64,000 nt of DNA. Origin: Octopus vulgaris. Lineage: Eukaryota. Each line of letters starts with the position of its first letter. Positions within the stretch are counted from its first letter, which is position 1. Under the pieces are notes generated by a model. It worked only from the letters and a program-made list of their open reading frames with translations. It did no database searches and was not told the DNA's origin. Both the position numbers and the translations under genes were made by a program. Where the stretch lies: NCBI GenBank assembly GCA_951406725.2, contig OX597842.1:26040001-26104000 (forward strand), given 5' to 3'. Positions 1 to 59,480 of this stretch are shown piece after piece.

Positions 1-3000
1 ATTTTGAGAATGAAATTGTTAATGAGAAGTTATGTATATTGACCAACAATGGATGGTTGCTGGCAGAATCGTTAGCATGCCGGGCGAAATGCTTAGCGGT
101 ATTTCGTCTGCCACTATGTTCTGAGTTCAAATTCTGCCAAGGTCGACTTTGCCTTTCATCCTCTCGGGGTCGATAAATTAAGTACCAGTTACGCACTGGG
201 GTCAATATAATTGACTTAATCCGTTTGTCTGTCCGTGTTTGTCCTCTCTGTGTTTAGCCCCTTGTGGTTTGTAAAGAAATAGGTATTTCGTCTGCCGTCA
301 CGTTCTGAGTTCAAATTCTGCTCAGGTCGACTTTACCTTTCATCCTTTCGGGATCGATAAATTAAGTACCAGTTACGCACTGGGGTCGATATAATTGACT
401 TAATCCGTTTGTCTGTCCGTGTCTGTCCTCTCTGTGTTTATCCCCTTGTGGTTTGTAAAGAAATAGGTATTTCCTCTGCCGCTACGTTCTGAGTTCAAAT
501 TCTGCCGAGGTCGACTTTGTCTTTCATCTTTTTGGGGTCGATAAATTAAGTACCAGTTATGCACTGGGTCGATATAATCGACTTAATCCGTTTGTCTGTC
601 CTTGTTTGTCCTCTCTGTGTTTAGCCCCTTGTGGTTTGTAAAGAAATAGGTATTTCGTCTGCCATTACGTTCTGAGTTCAAATTCTGCCGAGGTCGACTT
701 TACCTTTCATCCTTTCGGGGTCGATAAATTAAGTACCAGTTATGCACTGGGGTCGATATAATCGACTTAATTCGTTTGTCTGTCCTTGTTTGTCCTCTCT
801 GTGTTTAGCCCCTTGTGGGTACTAAAGAAATAGGTATTTCGACTGCCACTACGTTCTGAGTTCAAATTCCGCCCAGGTCGACTTTACCTTTCATCCTTTC
901 GGGGTCGATAAATTAAGTACCAGTTACGCACTGGGGTCGATATAATCAACTTAATCCGTTTGTCCATCCGTGTTTGTCCTCTCTGTGTTTAGCCCCTTGA
1001 AGGTAGTAAAGAAATAGGTATTTCGTCTGCCGTTACGTTCTGAATTCAAATTCCGCTCAGGTCGACTTTACCTTTCATCCTTTCGGGGTCGATAAATTAA
1101 GTACCAGTTAATCACTGGGGTCGATATAATCGACTTAATCCGTTTGTCTGTCCGTGTTTGTCCTCTCTGTGTTTAGCCCCTTGTGGTTTGTAAAGAAATA
1201 GGTATTTCGTCTGCCGTTACGTTCTGAGTTCAAATTCCGCCCAGGTCGACTTTGTCTTTCATCCTTTCAGGGTCGATAAATTAAGTACCAGTTACGCACT
1301 GGGGTTGATATAATCGACTTAATCCGTTTGTCTGTCCGTGTCTGTCCTCTCTGTGTTTATCCCCTTGTGGTTTGTAAAGAAATAGGTATTTCGTCTGCCA
1401 TTACGTTCTGAGTTCAAATTCCGCCCAGGTCGACTTTACCTTTCATCCTTTCGGGGTCGATAAATTAAGTACCAGTTAATCACTGGGGTCGATATAATCG
1501 ACTTAATCCGTTTGTCTGTCCGTGTTTGTCCTCTCTGTGTTTAGCCCCTTGTGGTTTGTAAAGAAATAGGTATTTCGTCTGCCGTTACGTTCTGAGTTCA
1601 AATTCCGCCGAGGTTGACTTTACCTTTCATCCTTTCGGGGTCAATAAATTAAGTACCAGTTACGCACTGGGGTCGATATAATCGACTTAATCCATTTGTC
1701 TGTCCTTGTTTGTCCTCTCTGTGTTTAGCCCCTTGTGGTTTGTAAAGAAATAGGTATTTCGTCTGCTGTTACGTTCTGAGTTCAAATTCCGCCGAGGTTG
1801 ACTTTACCTTTCATCCTTTCGGGGTCAATAAATTAAGTACCAGTTACGCACTGGGGTCGATATAATCGACTTAATCCATTTGTCTGTCCTTGTTTGTCCT
1901 CTCTGTGTTTAGCCCCTTGTGGGTAGTAAAGAAATAGGTATTTCGTCTGCCGTTACGTTCTGAGTTCAAATTCCGCCCAGGTCGACTTTGTCTTTCATCC
2001 TTTCAGGGTCGATAAATTAAGTACCAGTTACCCACTGGGGTTGATATAATCGACTTAATCCGTTTGTCTGTCCGTGTCTGTCCGTGTCTGTCCTCTCTGT
2101 GTTCATCCCCTTGTGGTTTGTAAAGAAATAGGTATTTCGTCTGCCATTACGTTCTGAGTTCAAATTCCGCCCAGGTCGACTTTACCTTTCATCCTTTCGG
2201 GGTCGATAAATTAAGTACCAGTTAATCACTGGGGTCGATATAATCGACTTAATCCGTTTGTCTGTCCGTGTTTGTCCTCTCTGTGTTTAGCCCCTTGTGG
2301 TTTGTAAAGAAATAGGTATTTCGTCTGCCGTTACGTTCTGAGTTCAAATTCCGCCGAGGTTGACTTTACCTTTCATCCTTTCGGGGTCAATAAATTAAGT
2401 ACCAGTTACGCACTGGGGTCGATATAATCGACTTAATCCATTTGTCTGTCCTTGTTTGTCCTCTCTGTGTTTAGCCCCTTGTGGATAGTAAAGAAATAGG
2501 TATTTCGTCTGCCGTTACGTTCTGAGTTCAAATTCCGCCCAGGTCGACTTTACCTTTCATCCTTTCAGGGTCGATAAATTAAGTACCAGTTATGCACTGG
2601 GGTCGATATAATCGACTTAATCCGTTTGTCTGTCCGTGTCTGTCCTCTCTGTGTTTATCCCCTTGTGGTTTGTAAAGAAATAGGTATTTCGTCTGCCATT
2701 ACGTTCTGAGTTCAAATTCCGCCCAGGTCGACTTTACCTTTCATCCTTTCGGGGTCGATAAATTAAGTACCAGTTATGCACTGGGGTCGATATAATCGAC
2801 TTAATCCGTTTGTCTGTCCTTGTTTGTCCTCTCTGTGTTTAGCCCCTTGTGGTTTGTAAAGAAATAGGTATTTCGTCTGCCATTACGTTCTGAGTTCAAA
2901 TTCCGCCCAGGTCGACTTTACCTTTCATCCTTTCGGGGTCGATAAATTAGGTACCAGTTACGCACTGGGGTTGATATAATCGACTTAATCCGTTTGTCTG

Positions 3001-3535
3001 TCCGTGTCTGTCCTCTCTGTGTTTATCCCCTTGTGGTTTGTAAAGAAATAGGTATTTCGTCTGCCATTACGTTCTGAGTTCAAATTCCGCCCAGGTCGAC
3101 TTTGTCTTTCATCCTTTCGGGGTCGATAAATTAAGTACCAGTTACCAAATGGGGTCGATATAATGGACTTAATCCGTTTGTCTGTCCTTGTTTGTCCTCT
3201 CTGTGTTTAGCCCCTTCTGGGTAGTGAAGAAATACTGAAAGCATGTAGAGGGTGTGCCCTAGCTGCAAAAGAACCTACCACTAAATGGCAACCATGGCTA
3301 AAAACAGATATTCCATGGTCCAGACTACATATTAATTATGCAGGTCCACATAAGGGTTCATATTACCTTGATGATGTTGTGGACAGTTTTTCTAAGTGGC
3401 CTGAAGTGCATGAGTGTAAAAAGCTGACATCTGCAATTGTAAGTTTTTTTACATGAATTGTTCCCCTGATATGATATTCCTGATACCATTTTATCTGATA
3501 ATGGCACCCCATTTCAGACAAGTTCAGAAAATTTT
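1..3535 (+). mobile_element. Degenerate Ty3/Gypsy-type LTR-retrotransposon integrase fragment (1-54 and ~3230-3535), split by a SINE array
   Basis: 1-54 translates ILRMKLLMRSYVY*PTMD. After the array: EILKACRGCALAAKEP..PWSRLHINYAGPHKGSYYL..VVDSFSKWPEV..IPDTILSDNGTPF. This matches the integrase Zn-binding region and the start of the DDE core, with stops and a frameshift. Confidence 0.85.
60..3233 (+). repeat. Tandem array of 17 x ~184-bp units derived from a tRNA-head SINE (family B)
   Basis: Unit starts at 98, 282, 466, 649, 833 ... 2867, 3051. Each unit has a B-box (gagttcaaattcc) and the motif gtcgactttgcctttcatcctttcggggtcgataaattaagtaccag. Only the first copy carries the 5' head. Confidence 0.95.
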
Positions 3536-4382: not shown

Positions 4383-9187
<4,805 letters not shown>

Positions 9188-9234: not shown

Positions 9235-10292
9235 GGGTGCTTTTTACGTGCCACCCGCACTGGTGCCAGCCAGAGCTGGCAAACGGCCACGAACGGATGG
9301 TGTTTTTTATGTGCCACCGGCACGAGGGCCAGGCGAGGCTGGCAACGGAACACGAAACGGGGCGGTGCTGGCAACGGTCGCGAAACGGAAAGTTCTCTTA
9401 CATGCCACCGGCACTGGTAACACATCTGCAATTTCCATTGATCGATTTCCATTGATCGATTTCGATTCTGATCCTCACTTGCCTCAATGGGTCTTCACAA
9501 GCAGAGTTTCGACATGCCACCGGCACTGGTAGCACATCCGCAATTTCCATTGATCGATTTCGATTCTGATCCTCACTTGCCTCAACACGTCTTCACAAGT
9601 AGAGTTTTGTGTCCCAAGAAGGGAAGGTATGCATACGTAGGCTGGCTCCATCCCATGTAGAAGGCCACGGGTTGTGGACTCACTTGTCCTGCCGGGTCTT
9701 CTCGCGCACAGCACACTTCCAGAGGTCTCGGTCTCTAGTCATTTCCTCAGTGAGACCTAAAGTTCGAAGGTCGTGCTTCACCACCTCGTCCCAGGTTTTC
9801 CTGGGTCTGCCTCTTCCACAGGTTCCCTCAACCGCTAGGGTGTGGCACTTTTTCACACAACTATCTTCATCCATTCTCGCCACATGACCATACCAGCGCA
9901 AACGTCTCTCTTGCACACCACAACTGATGCTTCTTAGGTCCAGCTTTTCTCTCAAGGTACTTACACTCTGCCGAGTGTGAGTACTGGCATTACACATCCA
10001 TCGGAGCATACTGGCTTCATTTCTAGCGAGCTTACGCATATCCTCAGCAGTCACGGCCCATGTTTCACTGCCATGTAGCATGGCTGTTCGTACACACGCA
10101 TCATACAGTCTGCCTTTCACTCTGTGCGAGAGGCCTTTTGTCACCAGCAGAGGTAAGAGCTCTCTGAACTTTGCCCAAGCTATTCTTACTCTAGCAGTTA
10201 CACTTTCAGCACACCCGCCCCCGCTGCTGACTTGGTCACCTAGGTAACGGAAACTATCAACTATTTCTAGTTTTTCTCCCTGGAAAGTGACA
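9235..10292 (-). mobile_element. 5'-truncated RTE-clade LINE (RT C-terminus, ORF 10292-9680, plus 3' UTR)
   Basis: The frame reads [70 protein letters not shown], typical of the RTE ORF C-terminus. It is flanked by (TA)n on both sides. Confidence 0.92.
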
Positions 10293-10293
10293 G

Positions 10294-10582
<289 letters not shown>

Positions 10583-11348
10583 GTGACTGAAAGAAGTACA
10601 AGATAAAAGATATATTTATGTGTGCGCATTTGAGTGAGTTCATATTTTCCTTGCATTCACTGGTTCGTAAACAATTGTTGCCTGACTTTTGTGTTTGCTT
10701 TGCAGTCCACCACAAAAGCATATTTAAGTTTCTTGTCATGTCACAACAAGTTGCATGACCTTTGCAAACATACTGGTGTCATTTCATTTCCAGTTCTCCA
10801 TATAAAGTAAGTCCAGGCTGTTTGTTATTCAAAAGGCTAGGTATGTATGTGTATATATGTATATATATTCAGTTGGCAACTGGAAGGGCATGGAGTCAGC
10901 GTTGTTTCAAAGCTTGGACAGACTGGACACTTGCCTGAGGAACCCTATGGATTTAGGGCACCAATGCTTAATTTATGTATGCTGCAGTCTGAGGCTTGTT
11001 GCCAATAAATGTATGTAGGGTCCCCAGCTCGCTGATTTGCTTAGGGGGCACATAAAGCTGTTACAACAACCCTACATGCTACAATAGAAAAACTATCTCC
11101 CCTACACCATATACTTTTGTCTGATCCGTGCAAGCATGGAAAAGTAAATATCAAAATGATAATGAGCAATGAATTAGCCACTGGTAAATAATTAATCTGT
11201 GGCCAAGGGTTCTGAACCCTTTTTTTTTTTTATCTATGGACCCCTTTGATTCCTATTTTATTCTGGTGGACCCCTGTAGCCATTCGATGTTTAAAAACTA
11301 GTTTTATAGACATTCTTTCAAAATTCCTATTTTGTTTTTCACACATTA

Positions 11349-11689: not shown

Positions 11690-12250
11690 TCACTTTGATT
11701 TTGATATCACTTGCCTCAACAGGTCTTTGCAAGCAGAGTTTAGTGTCCAAAGAAGGAAACGGTATGCATAAGTGGGCTGGTTATGTCCCTGGCATAGGCC
11801 ACGAGGTTATGGTCTCATTTGGCTTGCCGGGTCTTCTCAAGCACAGCATATTTCCAAAGATCTTGGTCACTAGTCATTTCCTTGGTGAGGCCTAAAGTTC
11901 GAACCACTTCATCCCAGGTCTTCCTGGGTCTACTTCTTCCACAGGTTCCCTCAACCGCTAAGCTGTGGCACTTTTTCATACAGCTATCCACATCCATTCT
12001 CGCTATATGTCCATACCAGTGCAGTCGTCTCTCTTGCACACCACATCTGATGCTTCTTAGGTCCAACTTTTCTCTCGGGGTACTTACACTCTGTCGACTA
12101 TGCACACTGACATCACACATCCATCGGAGCATACTGGCTTCATTCCTTGCGAGCTTACGCATGTCCTCAGCAGTCACGGCCCATGTTTCACTGCCATGTA
12201 GCATGGCTATTCGTACACATGCGTCATACAGTCTACCTTTTACTCTGAGT
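11690..12250 (-). mobile_element. RTE LINE fragment (second subfamily)
   Basis: ORF 11815-12204 [32 protein letters not shown] is paralogous to 9680-10144. Confidence 0.9.
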
Positions 12251-12251
12251 G

Positions 12252-12374
12252 AAAATTTCCACTTATTTCTTATTTTTATATTCTAAAATTTTTGTTGCGT
12301 CTTGCAACCTTTTCAATAGTTTTCAGTCAACGAAAATTTTAGGACAATAAAAATAAGAAATAAGTGGAAATTTT
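12252..12374. repeat. Short hairpin with perfect 28-bp arms
   Basis: aaaatttccacttatttcttatttttat (12252-12279) is the reverse complement of 12347-12374, with imperfect pairing further inside. Confidence 0.85.
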
Positions 12375-13739: not shown

Positions 13740-16730
<2,991 letters not shown>

Positions 16731-16828
16731 ATTCAATAATGAGGGTGAATAAAATTATAGATATTAATTCAATAATACCCTTATTTTAACACCAAGCGAC
16801 CTAGCACATATATGTATATATATATATG

Positions 16829-16866
<38 letters not shown>

Positions 16867-16905
16867 TATATATATATAAATAAATAAATATATATATATA
16901 TATAA

Positions 16906-18117
16906 CTGCGTGATCTCAACATAGTTGGAAAACTGGGAAAATGGCTTCATGACTTTCTGAAGGATAGAAGTCAGGTGGTAGTAGCCAATGGGGCCACCTC
17001 CATTAACACACAAATAGCGAGCGGTGTTCCGCAGGGCACTGTTCTGGGACCACTACTGTTCATAATGGCCCTCTCAGACATGCCCTCAGCCACGCAGAGA
17101 GCCACGATCACAAGTTATGCAGATGATACAAAAGTCTCACAGGCAATACAGAACCCTGAGGACACTAAACACCTGCAATGTGAGCTGGACGAAATATACA
17201 AGTGGGCTGAAAAGAATAGCATGCAGTTCAATGCTGGAAAGTTTCAAGCTTTATACTATCAGCATGCAAAACTGAATGCAATACCCAATGAATACACTGG
17301 ACCCGGAGGGATTGCAATCCCAGAGGCACAATCAGTGCGTGACCTGGGTATTCACATGAGTGATGACGCGACCTTTCATGTACATGTTGCTAAACTGACA
17401 ATGAAATGTAGACAGCTGGCTGGATGGATTCTTAGAACCTTTAGAACAAGAGAACAAGAAACCATGATGGTCCTCTGGAAGACACTTGTCCTAAGCCACT
17501 TTGACTATTGCTCTCAGCTATGGTCACCATCCAGTGTCAAGTTGATCACAGAACTTGAGGCGATCCAACGAAGCTACACAAAGAAGATAGCCTCTATGCA
17601 GAATGTAAGCTACTGGGAAAGACTCAAGAGATTAAAATTATATTCCCTGGAGCGTAGGCGGGAAAGATATGCCATAATATACATCTGGAAGATCCTGGAG
17701 GGAAGTGTCCTGAACTTTGGCATCGAGAGTTACGCAAATGCCAGAACTGGGCGCCACTGCGTGGTGCCTAGGACTCCAAACCTGCCATCAAGATGTAGGA
17801 CAAGATTCTGTGATAGCCTGGGCTTCCGAGGCCCACAGCTCTTCAATATCCTCCCGAAGAACCTGAGAGACCTGCATGGGGTGGATACAGATGTCTTTAA
17901 AACGAAGCTGGATCTCTTCCTGTCAGGTGTCCCAGATGAACCAACTTCACGGCAGGAGGGGCAGATGAGGGCAGCTGCATCGAACTCTCTCATGCATCAA
18001 ATAGCAGTTGCTAGAAAGCCTCCATGAAGTGAAACCAAGTAGCAACACCAAATGGCGGTGCCCCAGCATGGCCACAGCTCATAAGTTGAAACTAGAATCA
18101 ATCAATCAATCAATCAA
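16906..18117 (+). mobile_element. 5'-truncated CR1/L2-group LINE with uninterrupted RT C-terminal ORF (to 18027) and (AATC)n tail
   Basis: WLHDFLKDRSQ, SGVPQGTVLGPLLF, YADD, VRDLG, HFDYCSQLWSP, LYSLERRR and LFNILP motifs; tail aatcaatcaatc; (TA)n on both sides. Confidence 0.93.
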
Positions 18118-21106: not shown

Positions 21107-22495
21107 CATCATCATCATCATCATTGTTTAACGTCCGCTTTCCATGCTAGCATGGGTTGGACGATTTGACTGAGGACTGGCGAACCAAATGGCTGCACCA
21201 GGCTCCAATCTTGATCTGCCAGAGTTTCTACAGCTGGATGCCTTTCCTAACGCCAACCACTCTGAGAGTGTAGTGGGTGCTTTTACATGCCACTGGCACG
21301 AGGGCCAGTCAGGCAGTACTGGCAACGGCCACGCTCAAAGGGTGTTTTTTATGTGCCACCTGCACAGGAGCCAGTCCTGTGGCACTGGAAGTGATCTCGC
21401 TCTAATGTTGTTTTTCATGTGCCACTGGCACTAGTGCCAGTGAGGCGACGCTGGTAACGATCATGCTCGAATGGTGCTTTTTATGTGCCACCTGCACAGG
21501 AGCCAGTCCTGCGGCACAGGAAGTGATCTCGCTCTAATGTTGTTTTTCATGTGCCACTGGCACTAGTGCCAGTGAGGCGACGCTGGTAACGATCATGCTC
21601 AACTGGTGCTTTTTATGTGCCACCTGCACAGGAGCCAGTCCTGCGGCACTGGAAGTGATCTCGCTCTAATGTTGTTTTTCATGTGCCACTGGCACTAGTG
21701 CCAGTGAGGCGACGCTGGTAACGATCATGCTCGAATGGTGCTTTTTATGTGCCACCTGCACAGGAGCCAGTCCTGCGGCACAGGAAGTGATCTCGCTCTA
21801 ATGTTGTTTTTCATGTGCCACTGGCACTAGTGCCAGTGAGGCGACGCTGGTAACGATCATGCTCGAATGGTGCTTTTTATGTGCCACCTGCACAGGAGCC
21901 AGTCCTGCGGCACTGGAAGTGATCTCGCTCTAATGTTGTTTTTCATGTGCCACTGGCACTAGTGCCAGTGAGGCGACGCTGGTAACGATCATGCTCGAAT
22001 GGTGCTTTTTATGTGCCACCTGCACAGGAGCCAGTCCTGCGGCACAGGAAGTGATCTCGCTCTAATGTTGTTTTTCATGTGCCACTGGCACTAGTGCCAG
22101 TGAGGCGACGCTGGTAACGATCATGCTCAACTGGTGCTTTTTATGTGCCACCAGCATGGGAGCTAGTTAGTGGCCCTGGCAACGATCACACACGGGTGGT
22201 GCTTTTAATGTCCCACTGGCACAGGTGCCAGTCAGGTGGTGCTGTCATTGGCCACGTCAGCGAATTTGATTTTGATTGTGATTTCACTTGCCTCAACAGG
22301 TCTTCACAAGCAGAGTTTAGTGTCCAAAGAAGGAAACGGTATGCATAAGTGGGCTGGTTATGTCCCTGGCATAGGCCACGAGGTTATGGTCTCATTTGTC
22401 TTGCTGGGTCTTCTCAAGCACAGCATATTTCCAAAGGTCTCAGTCACTAGTCATTGCCTCTGTGAGGCCCAATGTTTGAAGGTCCTGCTTCGCCA
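21107..22495 (-). mobile_element. RTE LINE 3' end whose 3' UTR contains a 132-bp tandem repeat
   Basis: ORF end KQDLQTLGLTEAMTSD*DLWKYAVLEKTQQDK* at ~22395-22490, ctggatgcctttcctaacgccaacc motif, (cat)n tail at 21107. Confidence 0.88.
21341..22152. repeat. 6 x 132-bp tandem repeat (each unit is two ~66-bp subunits)
   Basis: atgtgccacc recurs at 21351, 21483, 21615, 21747, 21879, 22011 and 22143. Confidence 0.95.
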
Positions 22496-26851: not shown

Positions 26852-28086
26852 ATAATGGAAAATAGGTGATCTTCAAAACGTTGAGATCCAGGTGGCAAAA
26901 GCAAATAGTGAAGGGAATAGTAGTCATTGCCTTTGATTTCTAAATAGAAGTGAATAGGAAATAACACTTACTGACCAAAGACAATAAGCGAATATGTGGT
27001 ATTCAGCAGAATATTTGCTCTGACAATATTTCTGCTTGAGGGCAGCGAGCTTGCAGAATTGTTATCACACAGGGCGAAATGCTTAGCGGTATTTCATCTG
27101 CCGTTACATCCTGAGTTCAAATTCGACGAAGGTCAACTTTACCTTTCATCCTTTTAGGGTCGATTAAATAAGTACCAGTTATGCACTGGGGTCGATATAA
27201 TCAACTTAGTTCATTTGTCTGTCTTTGTTTGTCCTCTCTGTGTTTAGCCCCTTGTGGGCAATAAAGAAATAGGTATTTCGTCTGTTGTTACGTTCTGATT
27301 TCATATTCCACCAAGGTTGACTTTGCCTTTCATCCTTTCGGGGTCAATTAAATAAGTACCAGTTATGCACTGGGGTTGATGTGATCGTTATGTCCTGAGT
27401 TCAAATTCTACGAAGGTCAACTTTGCATTTCATCCTTTTGGGATCAATTAAATAAGTACCAGTTACGCACTGGGGTCGATATAATCAACTTAATTCATTT
27501 GTCTGTCTTTGTTTGTCCTCTCTGTGTTTAGCCCCTTGTGGGCAGTAAAGAAATAGGTATTTCATCTGCCGTTACGTTCTGATTTCAAATTCTACGAAGG
27601 TCGACTTTACCTTTCATCCTTTCGGGGTCAATTAAATTAGTACCAGTTATGCACTGGGGTTGATGTGATCGACTTAATCCCTTTGTCTGTGCTTGTTTGT
27701 CCCCTCTGTGTTTAGCCCCTTGTGGGCAATAAAGAAATATATATTCCTGTTTCAGCAACTCAGTACTGAATCTGCCTGAAACATAATGGAAAATAGGCTA
27801 ATTTCAAAACATTGGTGTCTAGGTCACAAAAGCAAAGTTTGAAGGGAATAATAGTAATTTCCTTTGATTTCTAGATAGAAGCAATTAGCAAATAACACTT
27901 ACTGACCAAAGACAACAAGAAAATCTGTTGTATTGAGCAGAATATTTGCTCTAACGATATTTCTGCTTCAGCAACTTAGCACTGAATCTGTTTGAAATGT
28001 AATGGAAAATAGGTCAGTTTCAAAACATTAGTGTCTAGGAGACAAAAGCTAGGTTTGAAGGGAATATTAATCGTTTCCTTTGATTT
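26852..28086. repeat. Degenerate ~217-bp tandem repeat (~2.5 copies); the first copy is interrupted by a family B SINE mini-array (27040-27738)
   Basis: taatggaaaatagg..caaaagc..gaagggaata recurs at 26853, 27785 and 28000. The insert is bracketed by atatttctgctt / atattcctgttt. Confidence 0.75.
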
Positions 28087-28436: not shown

Positions 28437-28546
28437 AAGAAGCAAATAGAAAATAACAGTTAGGGATCACAGACAAAGAAAAATAAAAAATTAAATATGT
28501 TCTTATAAAGTGTAATAATGATTTTTTTTTCTGTTCCTTCTTTCAG

Positions 28547-29438
28547 GAAGACAACTGAGAAGATGAAGGAGAAGGCCATTGCTGAGTATGACAAAAATGT
28601 GAAACGCTATGAGAAACTACAGCAGGAGGCTGCCAGAAAGGCCGAGGAAGAAAACCGAAAACTTCGTGAGATGCAGAACAGAGGGCAGGGCAATCCAACA
28701 GGTAAAAGCACAATACGGCAGAAACTGAAAACACTTGCATTCCGCACAAAGACCCGACCGTCAGCTTTCCCTCACAGCACGACAGGACGCAGCGCTGTTC
28801 CAAAAAGTGACGTCTTCCACGTGAGGGAGGTGGACGAGACCGGGAACGTCACGGTTCATTCCCCGAAGGGCATCACACGGGGATCAGATGTGATGTATGT
28901 CAACGGCCAACCCGAATCGCAGATGAGCAATAGTATATATGAGAAAGAGGAGCAGAATTCGAAGGTGGCTGGAATCTTTGATCGGCCCGGCATGGGCACG
29001 ATGGCATTTTTTAATAACCGCCAGGTGGCAGCACATTCTTTGTTTGCCGGTGATGAATCCGAAACAAGAGGCAAAGAACAAGGACATTTTGCTAGTCGTC
29101 CAACAGCTTTACTCAGCGACAGCATCATAGGCGATATGCAGTACAACCCCAAGGACTTACCCTGGGACGACGAGATCATTGGAAACCTAGACGACGGCGA
29201 AAATGGCCTCACAAAGTACTCGACACTTGAACTCTTTCTTGTAACTTACAAACTGGAGGACTACTTCGATGTGTTCTCTCGTGAGAAGATTGACCTTGAT
29301 GCCTTAATGTTGCTGGAAGACGAAGACTTAAAGAGTCTTAATGTAGAGTTAGGGCCTCGACGGAAACTGAAAAATGCCATTGAAAAGAGACGAAATGTGC
29401 TACGTAACCCTGGGGCTATGGTTGATACACGAATCTGA
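28547..29438 (+). CDS. USH1G: USH1G/SANS-like gene, terminal coding exon (coiled coil, central region, SAM domain, PDZ-binding motif)
   Basis: tctttcag|G completes the CG-G Arg codon in frame with the upstream exon. It encodes GIFDRPGMGTMAF and DLPWDD central motifs, the SAM domain LELFL..LEDYFDVFSREKIDLDALMLL..DLKSLNVELGPRRKL, and C-terminal DTRI*. Confidence 0.93.
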
Positions 29439-40088: not shown

Positions 40089-41912
<1,824 letters not shown>

Positions 41913-45377: not shown

Positions 45378-46362
45378 TATATATATACACATACACACAT
45401 ATATATGTGTGTGTGTGTGCATAGGCACACATATATTTGAAGCACACAGCATAAACTCTATTAGGAGAATACATCCAAAGAAACCCAAACAAATCAGACT
45501 GGAACCTAGTGCAGCATCATGGTTTTCCAGCTCATGTCACACTGTGCCACCCATGCCAGTAAAGGAAAAAAAATTTCACCAAAGGATGATGATGATAACA
45601 GCGACAATGATGAAAACACATAGACAAAATCAACTTCAGTGTAACCTTTTATTCATTATTCCCATTTCTTTATTCTCTCAAAGCAAATTGCTCAAAAATC
45701 CAGAGTAATCATCTTCAGAAATCAAAGACATTATTGATATACTTCCATATATATACATAACATTCATGCATTTCATGTTGACATTATTGAAATTGAAGTT
45801 AATAACATCATATTTGAAGAGATAAAAATACCCCTGTCTTTCAGCAGGAAAACATAGCCATAATTGTTGTAACAAAGATTAATACTGAATGGTTGCACTT
45901 TTGTGTGAATACTCACATGTGTACATAAATGGCGTTTTTGAGAGAAAGATTGACCATAGATATCACAGTGATATTGTTTTTCCCCAGTATGAATATGCTT
46001 ATAATTAGTCAAGTCACCATTGTATGAGAATGATTTACCACAGATATCACAATGATATGGTTTCTATCCTGCACTGGTGTTTAGTTAGGACACCACTTTC
46101 AGAGAATGATTTACCACAGATATCACAATGATATGGTTTTTCCCCTGTATGAGTGCGTTTATGATCAGACAATTGGCCACTACGAGAGAATGATTTACCA
46201 CAGATATCACAATGATATGGCTTCTCTCCTGTATGAACACGTTTGTGAATAATTAAATGGCTATTTTCAGCAAATGATTTGCCACAGATATCACACTGAT
46301 ATGGCTTTTCCCCACTATAAATACGTTTAAGTTTAGTCAATTCACTATAACAAGAAAATAAT

Positions 46363-47301
46363 TTACCAGTCATCACAATGATATGGCTTCTCTCCTGTAT
46401 GAATACGCTTGTGTCGAGTCAAATCACCTTTTACAGTGAATGATTTACCACAGATATCACAATGATATGGCTTCTCTCCTGTATGAACACGTTTATGGAC
46501 AGTCAAGTTACCATTACGTGAGAATGATTTACCACAGATATCACAATGAAATGGCCTCTCTCCTGTATGAATGCGTTTGTGATTAGTTAAAGTGCCATTT
46601 TCAGAGAATGATTTACCACAGATATCACAATGATGAGGTTTCTCTCCTGTATGAATGCGTTTATGATTAGACAAGTGGCTACTACGAGAGAATGATTTAC
46701 CACAGATATCACAATGATATGGTTTCTCTCCTGTGTGAACGCGCCGGTGTTTAGTTAAGTCATAACTTTGAGAGAATGTTTTACCACAGATATCACAATG
46801 ATGTGGCTTTTCTCCTGTGTGAAGACGTTTATGTCGAGTTAAAATGCTCTTTAGAGAAAATGATTCACCACAGATATCACAATGAAATGGCCTCTCTCCT
46901 GTATGAATGCGTTTGTGATTAGTTAAACTGCCATTTTCAGAGAATGATTTACCACAGATATCACAATGATGAGGTTTCTCTCTTGTATGAATGCGTTTAT
47001 GATTAGACAAGTGGCCACTACAAGAGAATGACTTACCACAGATATCACAATGATGAGGTTTCTCTCCAGTGTGAACGCTCCGGTGTTTAGTTAAGCCATT
47101 ACTTTGAGAGAATGTTTTACCACAGATACCACAATGATGTGGCTTCTCTCCTGTATGAACACGTTTATGGACAGTCAAGTGACTCCTTCGAGAGAATGTA
47201 TTTCCACAGACATCACAGAAATATGGTTTCTCTCTTGTATCAGGGTTTTTAGGTTCAGTTAAATTATTCATTATGACAGGATAATTTGTCATATATATCA
47301 C
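46363..47301 (-). CDS. C2H2 zinc-finger gene ZNF-2: ORF with 10 intact fingers; further fingers continue out of frame to ~45890
   Basis: Ten CxxC-x12-HxxxH units with TGEKP/TREKP linkers; frameshift at ~46370 (HCDDW*); deletion at ~46070; acceptor 47661-47663. It is either a truncated gene or a pseudogene. Confidence 0.75.
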
Positions 47302-50300
47302 AATAATATTGTTTTTTTTTCTTTTCTATGAATATGTTTGTGTTCATTTGCATTACTTTTTTTAGAGAATACTTTAATGTTAATCTTTCTTTCACCTGTG
47401 ATCTTACTTAATACCTAAATCAACAGGTGAAAACTGTCAACTCGTTTGTAAAGTTATCCAAACTTGTAAAGCAATCACCTCTTTGACATTCCAGACAAGA
47501 GAAATACTTTTCTGTTGTTTGTCATAGATTATATTTATATAGAAACGTTGATGTATAGATGAATGCTCCTTATAAATATATCATCTTCCTTTAGTTGATG
47601 AAAATATCAAAGGCACATCTGAATGAAGTAATTTCTTTCACGTCAACATGATGTGATATTCTGAAATAGAAAAAGAAACAGTAAGATAAAGAGGATAGTT
47701 AAGTGACATAGTAATTCAACATTGTAAATATTACAACAGTAACACTGTCAGCCATTTAATGTCAATGTTTACAGGGGTCAGAGTTCATTGAGGTGTTGAA
47801 ACATTGGTATACCCACACAAGTTTACTACACACTTCACCTTTACCTTTCAGAAAAATGTTTGATTTAAGACTTCATGTTGCCCGACCGGAATTCCCTTTT
47901 CTGGACCAGCTCGCTAGCTATCCAGCAGTGAAGGTCCCTCTCTTCATGTGGTCTACCATGAGCCCATGGTCAGTGCCCTACACATCATTAGGAACTTTTC
48001 GCTTTGACCGGCAGATTTTTAAAATAATTTCTATGTAACTAAAAAATTTTAAACTTCGTATACTGGTAGAATGTGTTTATAAAACATCTTTTTCTCTTCG
48101 CTTTATTGAGAAAATTCTGTTGTTTGTAACATATTTGTTGTTTAATTTCTTGCATTTCGGCAATTTCAACCAATCAAAGACGTCTATTGAGGTGAAAACG
48201 ATTTCTGCCGTAACATATACTGGCGGCGTCATATGAAAATGTCCCTGATTTTTATGAGAAAAAAGATACCCTGTGACCATAAACTGAGAGGTCTCTCGTA
48301 AACAGAGCTGGATAACAAAACCGTTCCCTTTTTAGTGTCCACCCATAATTATGACCCTAGTATCGATCTATTGCATTTCAATCTGTTTTAGGGTTGAGGG
48401 AAGGGTATCTTTTTTTCTTCAGAAATGTAAATAAACCCAATCTGTTTCTTAAACGAGGGACATATTCATACAGCACAGAATGTTTTCACCTCAATAGACG
48501 TCATTGATTGGTTGAAATTGAAGAAAATAAACAACAAATATCTTACAAACTATAGAATTTTCTCAATAAAGCCAAGAGAAAAACATGTTTTATAAACACA
48601 TTCTACCAGTATACGAAGTTTAAAAGTGTTTAGTTACGTGGAAAATATTTTTAAAAACTGCCGTTCAAACCGAAAGGATCCCAGAGTCGATCTCGACAGT
48701 AAGTCTTGGGTTCAAATATAGCCGAGGTTCACTTTGCCGTTCATCCCTTTCAGGAAATTCTGGGGCCCGTGTCATCGACTCCCGCTCGCCCTGGGCCAAA
48801 ATTTGAAACCACCATTACGATTATTAATATAACCTTAAAGCAAATCTTCATTAACTTACCGTTTTATCAATGCCTCATTAACAACGGGACAGAATTAATT
48901 AATGTGGTATTCTTCAATCGGTTTTTCTCATTTTACTAAATTATGCCACATTACATTCATTTTTACCAACTAATTTACTTTATATCACATGTATCAGTCG
49001 GTCATAGTATTTTATAAACAACAGATCAACATTTCAGTTTGGAAATTATTAATTAAGACGAACAACTATATTTTCCTAATTATCGACAGGTTCCCGCTTG
49101 GAAAAATAATTACTGTAACATCGAGAGGTTCACAGAATTCTATTATTTACCTTATTATTACTAGTATTATCAACAATATTACAGCCTTAAAGTAAATCTG
49201 TGTCAACTTACCGTATTCACAAATAAACAGCGACTCAGTGATCGGTAATTAACCTCCCTAATTAACTTCCCTAATCAGCTACTTTGGCCTCGTGGTTGAT
49301 ATGTTGTACAAGTTGTGTCCCTTGATATGATAGTATTTCCTCAATTCTCCAATAGAGAGCGCTACTGACTTGTTGGATTCGTTACGGTGTTTTTTTAACT
49401 TTGTCCCTTTCTGTCAATAACTCCATCTTCAAGTTTTTTTTATATTCTCACCAGATTATTTTAACAAAGCGTACTAGTATACTCTAGGATCTTTTCGGTT
49501 TGACCGGCAGTTTTCTAAATTAATTTCCACGTAACTAAACACTTTTAAACTTCGTATACTGGTAGAATGTGTTTATAAAACATTTTCTCTTGGCTTTATT
49601 GAGAAAATTCTATAGTTTGTAAGATATTTGTTGTTTTTTTCTTCAATTTCAACCAATCAATGACGTCTATTGAGGTGAAAACATTCTGTGCCGTATGAAT
49701 ATGTCCCTCGTTTAAGAAACAGATTGGGTTTATTTACATTTCGGAAGAAAAAGATACCCTTCCCCCCACCCCTATCGCTAAATAAGATTGAAATGCAATA
49801 GATCAATACTAGGGTCATAATTATGGGTGACAATTTCATATGACACCGCTAGAAAAAACTGCCGGTCAAACGGAAAAGATCGGAAGTCCCTTCTCTGCAG
49901 AGCAAATCACTAAGTAGCCTGCTGTGAGGTTCCTGTCTATAGTCCGTCTGTTATAAATTTATGGCCAGTGCCCTAAACAAGCATTCAGGGTCTTCACCCA
50001 CACCTCGTCTTCGAACTGTACAGACACCATGCTGAGATGTCTCCCTTTTCACTAGAATATGGCTCTTTTCGAGGCAGACTCTTCGGTTTGCCCTACCCTG
50101 GACGTTATGTTGTACCAGAAGACTACCTCCATTGTCTTCTGGCAATTTCAGCAGCACTCTCTCCATATAGCCATCTGCTCTGGACCACAGTCGACCATTG
50201 AGGGGTTTACATTTTCCCAATAGTTCATGATGTCAATGGCTACCCCATTCCGGTCTCCTTCCACCCGAATCATTCCTGTTTTGTGTGCTGGGTTGACGGA

Positions 50301-52897: not shown

Positions 52898-53729
52898 GAG
52901 GGAATGATTTGCCACAGATCTCACACTGATATATCTTCTCTCCTGTAAGAATATATTTGTTTAGCTAAAACGCTAAATAGAAAATCTCACAGTGATAAAA
53001 TCTTTATTATGATCCTGAGATCGAACATAGAAAACGACATAACAGTACAAAGAATTACAAAAATGGGATCTTTTCCTTTTCAACGGCAGTTTTCAACACA
53101 ATTTCTAGTTAACTAAACTCATTTAAACTTTGTATACTGGGAGAATGTGTCAAAATAAAACATTTTTTTCTCTTGGCTTTCTTGGGAAAATTGTAATTTG
53201 TAAGTTTAACGTAGTTTAATTATTCGAATTTTAACCAATCCTATGCCCTCTATTGAGCTAAAATCATTTGCTGCGTCTAAAACAGACAACATCCTGTCAC
53301 TAACCCTTCAACTGCAGAATGCATTTCCTAATGTCAGCCCTTCTACAGAGTGCACTGGGTGTTATTTTTTCTTTTTTATGTGACAACAAAACCAACAGGG
53401 CCCCCAAGGACCCTGCAAGACAAAACATCTCAAAACTGGAAGGGAGGAAGGTAGTATTGAAGGAACGTCACTTTGTGCCAGTTGACAGGTTTAAGGTAGA
53501 AAGGGAACAGGGTCCAGATATAGAGCAATAAAAACAAACACAAAATAAATATCTTATTCATTATTCTTTATTAAGAAATTCCTATAACTGATGAAAGGAA
53601 AAAGCCTGTGTTTTAGCAGACCAATTAGTGTTAATTATCGTTATAACTTAATAAATTTTGACATTGAGACAGAAACACGTCTCTGTGAATACCCCCATGT
53701 TTATTCATGTGGCTTTTTCGAGAGAATGA

Positions 53730-54103
53730 TAGGAGAGTGTGCACCCTCTGGTATCGCGAGCAGATGGGTTCCAGAGGAGAAGAGTAGAAATTGCATCGTT
53801 TTCAGCTCTACAACAACCAAAGTACAAATATATGGGAAACTACCACCTGTGTCATCTCTTGTGAAAGGTAGAAGAGTCCAGTTTGCTGGACATTGTTGTA
53901 GAGCTGAAAACGATGCAATTTCTACTCTTCTCCACTGGAAGCCATCTGCTCGTGATACCAGAGGATGCACACTCTCCTACCCTGATGTAATCTCCAAGGA
54001 TACAGGCATCCAGCAACAAGACCTCCGTAATGCAATGATGGACCGTGAAGTCTGGCGTAGCATAGTAAATTCCATTGTCTCGACCACGGTCGAACAATGA
54101 TGA
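53730..54103 (+). mobile_element. RTE-like LINE 3' fragment with an inverted duplicate of its own sequence at the 5' end
   Basis: IYGKLPPVSSLVKGRRVQFAGHC..AMMDREVWRSIV..* then tgatga; 53730-53816 is the reverse complement of 53893-53979. Confidence 0.8.
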
Positions 54104-54181: not shown

Positions 54182-57156
54182 CTAATGAAGAAAATGGTTT
54201 CTCCCCTGCATGTGTCTTATTAGTGAGGTGATTAATTTGAAAGACTTACCACAAACAAAACAGTGATAGGGTTTCTCTCCTGTATGAACACGTTTGTGAG
54301 TAACCAATTGACAATTAAGGGCAAATGATTTAGCATGGTAATTACATTGATATGGTTTCTCTCCTGTATGTGTAAGTTTGTGATAAGCCAAATGACTCTC
54401 TTGAGAGAATGATTTACCACAGATAACACAAAGATATGGCTTCTCTCATGTATGTGTAAGTTTGTGATAAACCAAATGACTCTCTTGAGAGAATGATTTA
54501 CCACAGATAACACAAAGATATGGCTTCTCTCGTGTATGTGTAAGTTTGTGATAAACCAAATGACTCTCTTGAGAGAATGATTTACCACAGATAACACAAA
54601 GATATGGCTTCTCTTGTGTATGTGTAAGTTTGTGATAAACCAAATGACTCTCTTGAGAGAATGATTTACCACAGATAACACAAAGATATGGCTTCTCTTG
54701 TGTATGTGTAAGTTTGTGATAAACCAAATGACTCTCTTGAGAGAATGATTTACCACAGATAACACAAAGATATGGCTTCTCTCGTGTATGTGTAAGTTTG
54801 TGATAAACCAAATGACTCTCTTGAGAGAATGATTTACCACAGATAACACAAAGATATGGCTTCTCTCGTGTATGTGTAAGTTTGTGATAAACCAAATGAC
54901 TCTCTTGAGAGAATGATTTACCACAGATAACACAAAGATATGGCTTCTCTCGTGTATGTGTAAGTTTGTGATAAACCAAATGACTCTCTTGAGAGAATGA
55001 TTTACCACAGATAACACAAAGATATGGCTTCTCTCGTGTATGTGTAAGTTTGTGATAAACCAAATGACTCTCTTGAGAGAATGATTTACCACAGATAACA
55101 CAAAGATATGGCTTCTCTCGTGTATGTGTAAGTTTGTGATAAACCAAATGACTCTCTTGAGAGAATGATTTACCACAGATAACACAAAGATATGGCTTCT
55201 CTCGTGTATGTGTAAGTTTGTGATAAACCAAATGACTCTCTTGAGAGAATGATTTACCACAGATAACACAAAGATATGGCTTCTCTCGTGTATGTGTAAG
55301 TTTGTGATAAACCAAATGACTCTCTTGAGAGAATGATTTACCACAGATAACACAAAGATATGGCTTCTCTCGTGTATGTGTAAGTTTGTGATAAACCAAA
55401 TGACTCTCTTGAGAGAATGATTTACCACAGATAACACAAAGATATGGCTTCTCTCGTGTATGTGTAAGTTTGTGATAAACCAAATGACTCTCTTGAGAGA
55501 ATGATTTACCACAGATAACACAAAGATATGGCTTCTCTCGTGTATGTGTAAGTTTGTGATAAACCAAATGACTCTCTTGAGAGAATGATTTACCACAGAT
55601 AACACAAAGATATGGCTTCTCTCGTGTATGTGTAAGTTTGTGATAAACCAAATGACTCTCTTGAGAGAATGATTTACCACAGATAACACAAAGATATGGC
55701 TTCTCTCGTGTATGTGTAAGTTTGTGATAAACCAAATGACTCTCTTGAGAGAATGATTTACCACAGATAACACAAAGATATAGCTTCTCTCGTGTATGTG
55801 TAAGTTTGTGATAAACCAAATGACTCTCTTGAGAGAATGATTTACCACAGATAACACAAAGATATGGCTTCTCTCGTGTATGTGTAAGTTTGTGATAAAC
55901 CAAATGACTCTCTTGAGAGAATGATTTACCACAGATAACACAAAGATATGGCTTCTCTCGTGTATGTGTAAGTTTGTGATAAACCAAATGACTCTCTTGA
56001 GAGAATGATTTACCACAGATAACACAAAGATATGGCTTCTCTCGTGTATGTGTAAGTTTGTGATAAACCAAATGACTCTCTTGAGAGAATGATTTACCAC
56101 AGATAACACAAAGATATGGCTTCTCTCGTGTATATATATGGCTGTGCATAATCAAGTGTTTCTTTTGAGAGAATGGTTTACCACAGATATCACAATGATA
56201 TGGTCTCTCTCTTCTATGAATGCGATTGTGATCAACCAAATTACTATTACGAGAGAATGGTTTACCACAGATATCACACTGATATGGTTTTTCACCAGTA
56301 TGAATCTTCTTATAGTTAGTTAAAACTTTACGTTCACAGAATGATTTACCACAGATATCACAATGATAAGGTTTCTCACCAGTATGTGTAGGCTTGTGTC
56401 TAGCCAAGTGAGTGCTTTCAGAGAATGATTTACCAATGATAGTCAAGTGATTTCCTTGAGAGAAAGGTTTACCACAGATATCACACAGATATGGTCTCTA
56501 CCATGTATGTGTAATTTTGTGATTAGACAAATGATTTGCTTGAGAGAATGACTTACCACAGATATCACAATGATAAGGTTTCTCTCCTGTATGTGTACGT
56601 TTGTGTGTAGTTACACTACCATTCTGAGAGAATGATTTACCGCAGATATCACAATGATATGGTTTTTCACCAGTATGAATCTTCTTATGGTTAGTTAAAA
56701 CTTTACGTTCACAGAATGAATTACCACAGATATCACAATTAAATGGTCTCTCTCCTGTATGAGTGCGATTGTGACTAACCAATTGACTATTACGAGAGTA
56801 AGATTTACCACGGATATCACACTGATATGGTTTTTCCCCAGTATGAATCTTCTTATGTTTCGTCAAAACCGTACGTTCACAGAATGATTTACCACAGATA
56901 TCACAATGATAGGGTCTCTCTCCGTGTGAACGCGTTTGTGAGTAACCAAATGACAATTATAAGAGAATGATTTACCACAGATATCACAATGATAGGGTCT
57001 CTCTCCTGTATGTGTACGTTGGTGATAAGTTAAGTAACGATACTGGAGGAATGATTTTCCACAGATATTACAATTATATACCTTTACCTCTGTGTCGGGG
57101 ATTTCTGGTTTACTTAAATTATTCATTATGAGAGAATTACTTATCATACGTATCAC
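54182..57156 (-). pseudogene. C2H2 zinc-finger gene ZNF-3 (more than 30 finger units) with frameshifts and a stop as assembled
   Basis: Finger ORFs in different frames (57156-56863, 56956-56498, 56446-54446, 54391-54182); TGA at 54446-54448; acceptor 57507-57509; donor 57950. Confidence 0.75.
54365..56131 (-). repeat. 21 x 84-bp near-identical zinc-finger minisatellite ([28 protein letters not shown])
   Basis: gagagaatgatttaccacagataacac recurs every 84 bp from 54403 to 56083; about five substitutions seen in total. Confidence 0.97.
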
Positions 57157-58959
57157 AACGATAATGTGCTTTTCATTTCTATGAATATGTTTATGTTCCG
57201 TTGTGTCACTTCATGCAGAGAAGAATTTAATGCAATCCTTCTTCCATCCACGATCTTACTTGATGGAAATTGTAAACTCCTTAGTAAATTTATCAAACTT
57301 TAATTAACTAGGAAAGCAATCACCTCCTCCAAATTTCAGAGGAAGAAAAATATTCCGCTGTTCCTTGTTATAGACTGTATTTATATACAGAGGTAGACTT
57401 ATTTATGAATGCTCCTTATAAATATACTGTCTTCCTTTAGGTGATGAGAATATTGAAGACACTTCTGAATGGAGAGATTTCCTTCACACCAACATGTTGT
57501 GATATTCTGAAATAGGAAAAGAAGCAGTTAAATAAAACTGGATAGTTGACCAACATAAGTAATTCAACATTGCAGAATTTACATCACTACCATTGTCATG
57601 CATTTACTGTCCATGCTTGAATAAGTAGATTGAGCTGGAAGGTGTTAGAAGCTAATGGGAATGGAGCTAGCCAAAACGAAAATATAGTGGGCATAACATG
57701 ACCAGAGTAGTGAGTTGATGCCATCCAGAATTTGCTTAACAGCATTTCGTTCGTGAACAGCCGATAATAGGTTTTCACAAACAACAAACCAACATTTCAG
57801 TTTGGAAGTTATTATTTAAGACGAGGAAATATATTTTCCTAAAGTTTTTATGTTTTCGCTTCGAAATAATTACTGTGACACCGAGAAGTTCACAGAATTC
57901 TATTAATTACATTGTTATTAGTAGTATTATTATCATCATTGTCAACTTACCGTATTCAGACAAGAACTGCAAATCACAGACCGATAACTAATTAGTGTAA
58001 TTAATAATAATGAGCGCCTTGACACACAATACAGATATTAACAGAATGAAACTAAGAGAGAAACTGAAAGGAATCCCAACAGTCTGTAGAGCCATCTAGG
58101 AGAGAATTAGAGAACTACTATGAAATGGAATCTTTATTACGATCATGAGGATAGCACGCCGGGCGCAATGCTTAGCAGTATTTCATCTGCCGCTACGTTC
58201 TGAGTTCAAATTCCGCCCAGGTCGACTTTGCCTTTCATCCTTTTGGGGTTGATAAATTAAGTACCAGTGAAACACTGGGGTCATTATAATCGACTTAATC
58301 CCTTTGTCTGTCCTTGTTTGTCCCCTCTGTGTTTAGCCCCTTGTGGGTAGTAAAGAAATATATATAGAATGGGACAATACAGGTCAAACAAAAGACAAAA
58401 ATGTTATATGAGTTTGAATGAGTTACATGTTAAAAATTTACTTTAAAAATATTTTATATAACAATTAAATTTTCCTTTAACTCTCTTTACTCTTTTACTT
58501 GTTTCAGTCATCTGACTGTGGCCATGCTGGAGCACCACCTTTTAGTACTTATTCTATCGGTCTCTTTTTGCCGAACCGCTAAGTGACGGGTACGTAAACA
58601 CACCAGCATCGGTTGTCAAGCAATGCTAGGGGGACAAACACAGACACACAAACACACACACATATACATATATATACATATATACGATGGGCTTCTTCCA
58701 GTTTCCGTCTACCAAATCCACTCACAAGGCATTGGTCGGCCCGGGGCTATAGCAGAAGACACTTGCCCAAGATGCCACGCAGTGGGACTGAACCTGGAAC
58801 CATGTGGTTGGTTAGCAAGCTACTTACCACACAGCCACTCCTGCGCCTAGAACTTTTTAAAAAATAAAACGAAAACAAATAAAAAGATTAAAAGTTCGAA
58901 CCCGGCACCCTAAAGGGCCCAGCAACGATCTTTTCCTTTCATCAATGATTAAGCTGAGA

Positions 58960-59480
58960 AGGCGGCGAGCTGGCAGAAACGTTAGCATGTCGGGCGAAAT
59001 GCTTGGCGATATTTCGTCTGCTGCGACGTTCTGAGTTCGAATTCCGCCGAGGTCGACTTTGCCTTTCATCCTTTCGGGGTCGATAAATTAAGTACCAGTG
59101 AAACACTGGGGTCGATATAATCGACTCAATCGGGCGAAATGCTTGGCGATATTTTGTCTGCTGCGACGTTCTGAGTTCAAATTCCGCCGATGTTGACTTT
59201 GCCTTTCATCCTTTCGGGGTCGATAAATTAAGTACCAGTGAAACACTGGGGTCGATATAATCGACTCAATCGGGCGAAATGCTTGGCGATATTTCGTCTG
59301 CTGCGACGTTCTGAGTTCGAATTCCGCCGAGGTCGACTTTGCCTTTCATCCTTTCGGGGTCGATAAATTAAGTACCAGTGAAACACTGGGGTCGATATAA
59401 TCGACTCAATCGGGCGAAATGCTTGGCGATATTTTGTCTGCCACTACGTTCTGAGTTCGAATTCCGCCGAGGTCGACTTT
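58960..59480 (+). repeat. SINE family B tandem array, 3.5 x 140 bp
   Basis: cgggcgaaatgcttggcg at 58991, 59131, 59271 and 59411. Confidence 0.93.

Follow-up and report, generated by a model that had tools for sequence, protein, structure and literature searches.

The window, meaning the whole 64,000-nucleotide stretch of Octopus vulgaris DNA that was analysed, contains a cluster of paralogs in an octopodid genome, namely three neighbouring C2H2 zinc-finger genes with a common leader. That coleoid genomes hold large C2H2 clusters, as the original prediction stated, is also reported in the portions of PMC9068888 considered here. One of the three genes hosts the tandem array that is the subject of this work, and its 5′ leader shares 73% and 71% identity with those of its two neighbours. 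The features of the cluster are as follows.

54182 to 57147, minus strand: host gene, a member of the local tandem C2H2 family with about 35 finger positions and several breaks (finger pattern, Pfam)
56863 to 57147, minus strand: open reading frame of 94 aa that begins at the family start codon and covers 2 fingers before the frame is lost; its leader is homologous to the neighbours'
56921, minus strand: 1-bp frameshift (83-bp finger spacing) inside a G run
56810 to 56812, minus strand: second Cys of a finger changed to Arg, matched with 0 differences by an 82-letter contig of sequencing run X1
56498 to 56500, minus strand: in-frame TAG that follows finger 7 and lies 365 bp upstream of the array
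56372 to 56494, minus strand: 45-bp in-frame deletion that merges two fingers (spacing 123 rather than 168)
56120 to 56203, minus strand: pre-array finger with its second His changed to Tyr, ATG 56149 at helix position +6 and a G>R linker
54446 to 56149, minus strand: internal open reading frame of 567 aa with 20 array fingers, ending at a CpG-derived TGA in unit 20
54365 to 56133, minus strand: minisatellite of 21 copies of an 84-bp C2H2 finger with a TREKP linker (periodicity, TRF, unit comparison)
54182 to 54355, minus strand: degenerate terminal fingers downstream of the array
45936 to 47325, minus strand: paralog with 10 intact fingers, then a frameshifted tail
40141 to 41471, minus strand: paralog whose 6 fingers precede a stop and frameshifts

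The cluster is adjoined by a SAM-domain exon (28509-29438, plus strand) of an ANKS4B/USH1G-like gene, which matches the Octopus bimaculoides ANKS4B protein at 86%, with Argonauta proteins next. Four open reading frames (16906-18027 and 53588-54100 on the plus strand; 9680-10615 and 11815-12282 on the minus strand) resemble what we take to be tail fragments of non-LTR retroelement reverse transcriptases, and the one at 53588-54100, directly behind the array gene, has no Pfam match. Other tandem arrays occur at 98-3234 (184 bp x 17), 27102-27739 (284/184 bp x 2) and 58990-59480 (140 bp x 3.5). These three appear to be built on the same dispersed-repeat-like sequence, as if one element family repeatedly seeded minisatellites. 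The window also holds a GC-rich tandem array at 21288-22167 (132 bp x 6.7, 95% matches) and AT-type microsatellites at 4548-9187 (4.6 kb) and 13754-16904 (3.1 kb) with strong G/C strand skew.

Cut at finger starts, the array comprises 21 units of 84 bp that run on the minus strand from base 56119 to base 54356. The 84-bp periodicity itself extends from 54365 to 56133, with the last mismatch at 56134, and TRF reports a period of 84 with 23.1 copies at 97%. Sixteen of the 21 units are identical to the consensus. The remainder carry P>L (unit 5, 55782), R>Q (adjacent units 17 and 18, 54699 and 54615), CGA>TGA, which turns R into a stop (unit 20, 54448), and V>A (unit 21, 54387). The 21 near-identical copies at the DNA level and the list of variants are thus exactly as originally described. 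Unit 21 differs at two more bases (54364, 54356); these fall beyond the limits of the periodic stretch and represent the ordinary G linker. Mean pairwise difference between units is 0.8% and adjacent-unit identity is 0.996, compared with 0.86-0.97 for the non-coding minisatellites nearby. At a lag of 84, exact runs in the array reach 998 bp; the corresponding maxima elsewhere are 62, 36 and 28 bp (two neighbouring genes, 5′ portion of the host gene). This regularity is far beyond chance.

Among the fingers found by the pattern, the nearest one outside the array shares 69 of 84 bases with the unit, in agreement with the earlier claim that flanking and paralogous fingers are diverse. Of the very recent expansion also proposed, what stands is that the array is young relative to other fingers. 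The 348 fetched proteins with at least five fingers, a non-random set without any named octopus protein, contain no more than 3 near-identical fingers in a row, and an array of 21 units is extreme by that measure. The near-identical, head-to-tail units fall in the 10-100 bp class of minisatellites and, as in PRDM9-type arrays, 84-bp units have been homogenised inside one array.

Each unit encodes a classical C2H2 finger, C-x2-C-x12-H-x3-H with an aromatic and Leu core, and retains all four zinc ligands along with the hydrophobic core. Pfam PF00096 gives a match in 22 stretches (E 8.6e-111). The helix carries Q at -1, S at +2, H at +3 and Y at +6. The linker departs from the TGEKP form, since the Gly expected at its second position is R (or Q, or a stop) in units 1-20. 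In the fetched proteins this position is Gly in 3540 of 4114 linkers and Arg in 137. The identical G>R change in a KLF1 linker lowers DNA binding approximately 4-fold in vitro, according to the sections of PMC11327367 used here. By analogy, the TREKP linkers found throughout the array in place of TGEKP would be expected to weaken binding.

Each of the four mutation events in the array alters an amino acid or creates a stop, and the sites are confined to the linker, the P residue and helix position +5, leaving the DNA-contacting residues invariant. Two of the four fall on the only CpG of the unit (post-hoc P ~0.003), as real deamination of CpG would produce; a literature search returned nothing on methylation in octopus. 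That none of the four is synonymous has a chance expectation of approximately 0.2-0.4 from site counts, and four events do not suffice as proof of neutrality; judged from them, the array does not appear to be constrained to synonymous change. A second frame of the array is open for 639 aa (54232-56151, minus strand), with no ATG until near its end, and is probably a by-product of the repeat.

The edges of the array carry information on its origin. Specifically, the linker before unit 1 already reads T-R-E-K, the periodic stretch starts 14 bp inside that linker, and the linker after unit 21 carries the usual Gly. This pattern suggests that the unit captured a pre-existing lesion, and that the first duplication crossed between two neighbouring linkers, copying a finger together with its damaged linker. 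The order of events was therefore likely decay first and expansion second. The R>Q change shared by two adjacent units points to a later duplication or conversion and, with an array junction that sits in linker homology, sustains the earlier proposal of unequal crossover or slippage.

To what extent the array might be a product of the assembly was judged from public sequencing runs, the best of 24 listed containing 0.35 of the window's words. Four runs (X1, X5, X6 and X11) were compared with 56036-57700, which represents the 5′ part of the gene plus one unit. X1 and X11 derive from one organism, X5 and X6 from two others, and the RNA type of X11 is a guess. In X1, a contig exits the end of the unit and re-enters its start 84 letters back, at a depth of 1725.9. 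At this junction 14 letters fit both sides, the length predicted by a junction in the R linker (TREK). The depth of seven single X1 contigs or alleles is 46-173, so that the junction is 10-37 times higher, with the caveats that contig depth is not copy number and that paralogous arrays may sum. At several positions of the flank the window's base is missing from X1, which also shares only 0.35 of the window's words and thus probably represents another animal rather than the source of the assembly.

As to the length polymorphism supposed in the original prediction, the array joint was recovered from one of the three DNA-type runs (three organisms), where contig depth gives no allele lengths. No joint was recorded in X5, X6 or X11, which is a hint and not proof of absence because contigs show presence only. 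The presumed RNA run X11 yielded, in place of an array joint, only contigs that differ from the window. A real array that is shorter or less pure, inflated or homogenised by assembly or polishing, would fit a purity higher than in any other array of the window and the limits on reading the X1 depth given above. However, the high-depth junction occurs in what is probably another animal, and the variants look biological, as they include CpG transitions and one change common to adjacent units. Inflation by assembly is accordingly unlikely, although it retains some weight, and the array is probably not an artefact, a concern that the original prediction raised and on which the junction contig in X1 bears.

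The host gene is broken well before the array. No single frame runs from the family start through the fingers: the start candidates at 57147 and 57126 open frames of 94 and 87 aa with two fingers each, the frame is then lost at 56921, and even without that frameshift the TAG at 56500 closes it after 7 fingers. As read from the assembly, the product would contain at most 2 fingers, or 7 if the frameshift is an error, and no array finger. The frameshift, which the nearest X6 and X11 contigs lack, is thus either derived or an assembly error. A His>Tyr change at 56314 is likewise absent from all four runs compared, and part of the lesions may thus represent errors or private changes. The upstream flank at 57380-57700 shows contig depths of hundreds to thousands in DNA runs, which suggests that the host subfamily, or an element there, is multi-copy.

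These two unshared changes lend some credit to the idea that the lesions ahead of the array reflect assembly errors or occur on one haplotype only, and that in the population the array sits within an intact, long C2H2 protein. In contrast, the lesions are numerous and are mainly substitutions or in-frame changes, and the Cys>Arg change occurs in X1 as well. Furthermore, a 239-letter X1 contig crosses the TAG into the unit; three fingers are passed over on the way, and this contig too has lost the finger register (203 mod 3 = 2). It shows no indel at the TAG and, among 28 of the 37 substitutions of X1, no change to the usual Glu codon, making it likely that X1 shares TAG 56500. An intact population allele is consequently quite improbable.

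We favour the interpretation that the array is a minisatellite that expanded neutrally within the non-functional tail of an octopus C2H2 gene, with a probability of about 0.7. Given a frameshift and a stop ahead of it, and damage in all its linkers, the array is likely a neutral repeat rather than a working repeat-reading protein and, judging from these lesions, it is probably untranslated. In the mechanism that we propose, the 3′ part of the host gene would first have decayed through the TAG, the loss of zinc ligands and the G>R linker. Neighbouring linkers would then have mispaired, duplicating one finger with the damaged linker ahead of it. Two identical units would have eased further slippage or unequal exchange, with copy number outpacing diversifying mutation. 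Later point mutations (two at the only CpG, one of them a stop) would have been tolerated, and one would itself have been duplicated.

Other parts of the window are consistent with such a history. Both neighbouring genes have broken 3′ tails, and one carries a young finger duplication; the window also contains non-coding minisatellites of 184, 132 and 140 bp. In the broken tail of the paralog at 40141-41471, an adjacent pair of fingers (40331/40247) is 96% identical, and this pair (40141-40381, minus strand) is possibly the first step of the process that forms an array. Several observations weigh against neutrality. Twenty fingers share one open frame with an ATG and have intact ligands and core, the array is purer than the nearby non-coding minisatellites, the frameshift at 56921 may be an error (it lies in a G run and the closest X6 and X11 contigs lack it), and four events, none of them synonymous, are a small basis for neutrality.

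A neutral event would offer a snapshot of a finger array turning into a minisatellite without PRDM9-type selection. It would reveal both the seed, linker mispairing, and the sequence of decay followed by expansion, and would mean that 20-fold homogenisation is possible without function. Long C2H2 open reading frames tallied as genes in cephalopod surveys may then be repeat by-products. The array is possibly usable as a VNTR marker.

The functional alternative begins at ATG 56149 (or with a splice) and yields a 20-finger homopolymer that binds a trinucleotide repeat, with avidity offsetting the weak linkers. Among engineered helices, those that combine Q at -1 with H at +3 bind GGA, AGA and TGA (table 2 of PMC3607563, the part drawn on here). 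The unit helix has the same two residues, and the predicted target is therefore (NGA)n. The 567-aa frame with its intact zinc ligands speaks for such a protein, as do the presence of the ATC/TGA class among the trinucleotide runs of the window (4 of 28), the presence of just two short uORFs between the first open reading frame and ATG 56149, and the recurrence of the junction in a second animal. Against it, this ATG encodes a helix residue approximately 1 kb past the family start, with 7 upstream ATGs within 1.2 kb, and the X11 contig at this position lacks it. In addition, G>R affects all linkers, a nonsense change lies within the array, and no effector domain was found. Three protein searches returned mostly unrelated finger proteins, with no named octopus protein among the 120 matches listed in each and, in one of the searches, none above 58% identity among those 120.

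The original prediction of a 567-aa frame with 20 array fingers from ATG 56149 is therefore correct as to the frame. Its reading as a functional protein fares poorly, given a start in mid-finger behind a frameshift and TAG, and TREKP linkers. We consider translation into a repeat reader to have only a slim chance, slightly below that of an intact population allele. If it were true, the locus would encode a natural 20-finger reader of an (NGA)n microsatellite, and turnover of the minisatellite would adjust how many fingers it has. Such a protein would be a counterpart of engineered repeat-binding zinc-finger chains that arose from a dead gene tail and, if both translated and triplet-binding, a new kind of natural repeat reader.

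An identity with PRDM9, in which the array would form the finger exon of the octopus gene, is suggested by the 84-bp coding minisatellite and by a whale PRDM9 record (XP_007172657) with 12 fingers of zero diversity (supplement 3B of PMC5519329, the portion cited), but this identity is largely refuted and very nearly without prospect, given a 5′ leader matching those of the neighbouring plain C2H2 genes, invariant DNA-contacting residues, a stop that precedes the array, and no SET, KRAB or SSXRD domain by Pfam in 33 upstream minus-strand open reading frames of at least 45 aa (~7 kb upstream within the window).

For the neutral expansion, PRDM9 nevertheless provides a precedent in mutation process. 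In the portions of three studies used here (PMC5519329; 10.1101/2020.12.11.422147; 10.1101/848366), PRDM9 finger arrays are coding minisatellites that gain and lose whole units. The octopus array resembles them in the homogenisation of 84-bp C2H2 units within one array. Unlike PRDM9, its variants avoid positions -1, +2, +3 and +6, where PRDM9 diversity concentrates, and it follows a stop, with no SET, KRAB or SSXRD found in the scanned frames. The PRDM9 parallel originally drawn thus extends to the mutation process only.

Concerted repeat evolution, described as rare and lineage-limited in the sections of PMC5100051 consulted, likewise produces high unit purity via unequal crossing-over in single lineages; the proteins in those sections are intact, whereas the octopus array is probably untranslated. 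The coleoid C2H2 expansion, as covered in parts of PMC9068888, PMC12513265 and PMC10547256, shares with our locus its clustered tandem-finger genes and octopodid genome. Homopolymeric arrays are not described in the main-text portions of these three papers or of PMC11952569, and the words 'identical' and 'minisatellite' have 0 occurrences in the available text of PMC12513265. A literature search of papers outside subscription returned no report of an octopus array of identical fingers.

The closest known parallel comes from the mouse, where single fingers inside clustered KZFP genes and pseudogenes (MMSAT4) were tandemly duplicated, up to 4 copies, followed by degeneration (PMC5363842, in the part cited). 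Here too, a single finger was tandemly duplicated within a clustered gene that degenerates. In contrast to the mouse genes, the octopus array has 21 units that are identical at the DNA level, belongs to a mollusc, and lies in a gene in which no KRAB was found among the frames scanned. The array is an extreme case of a known kind of finger duplication.
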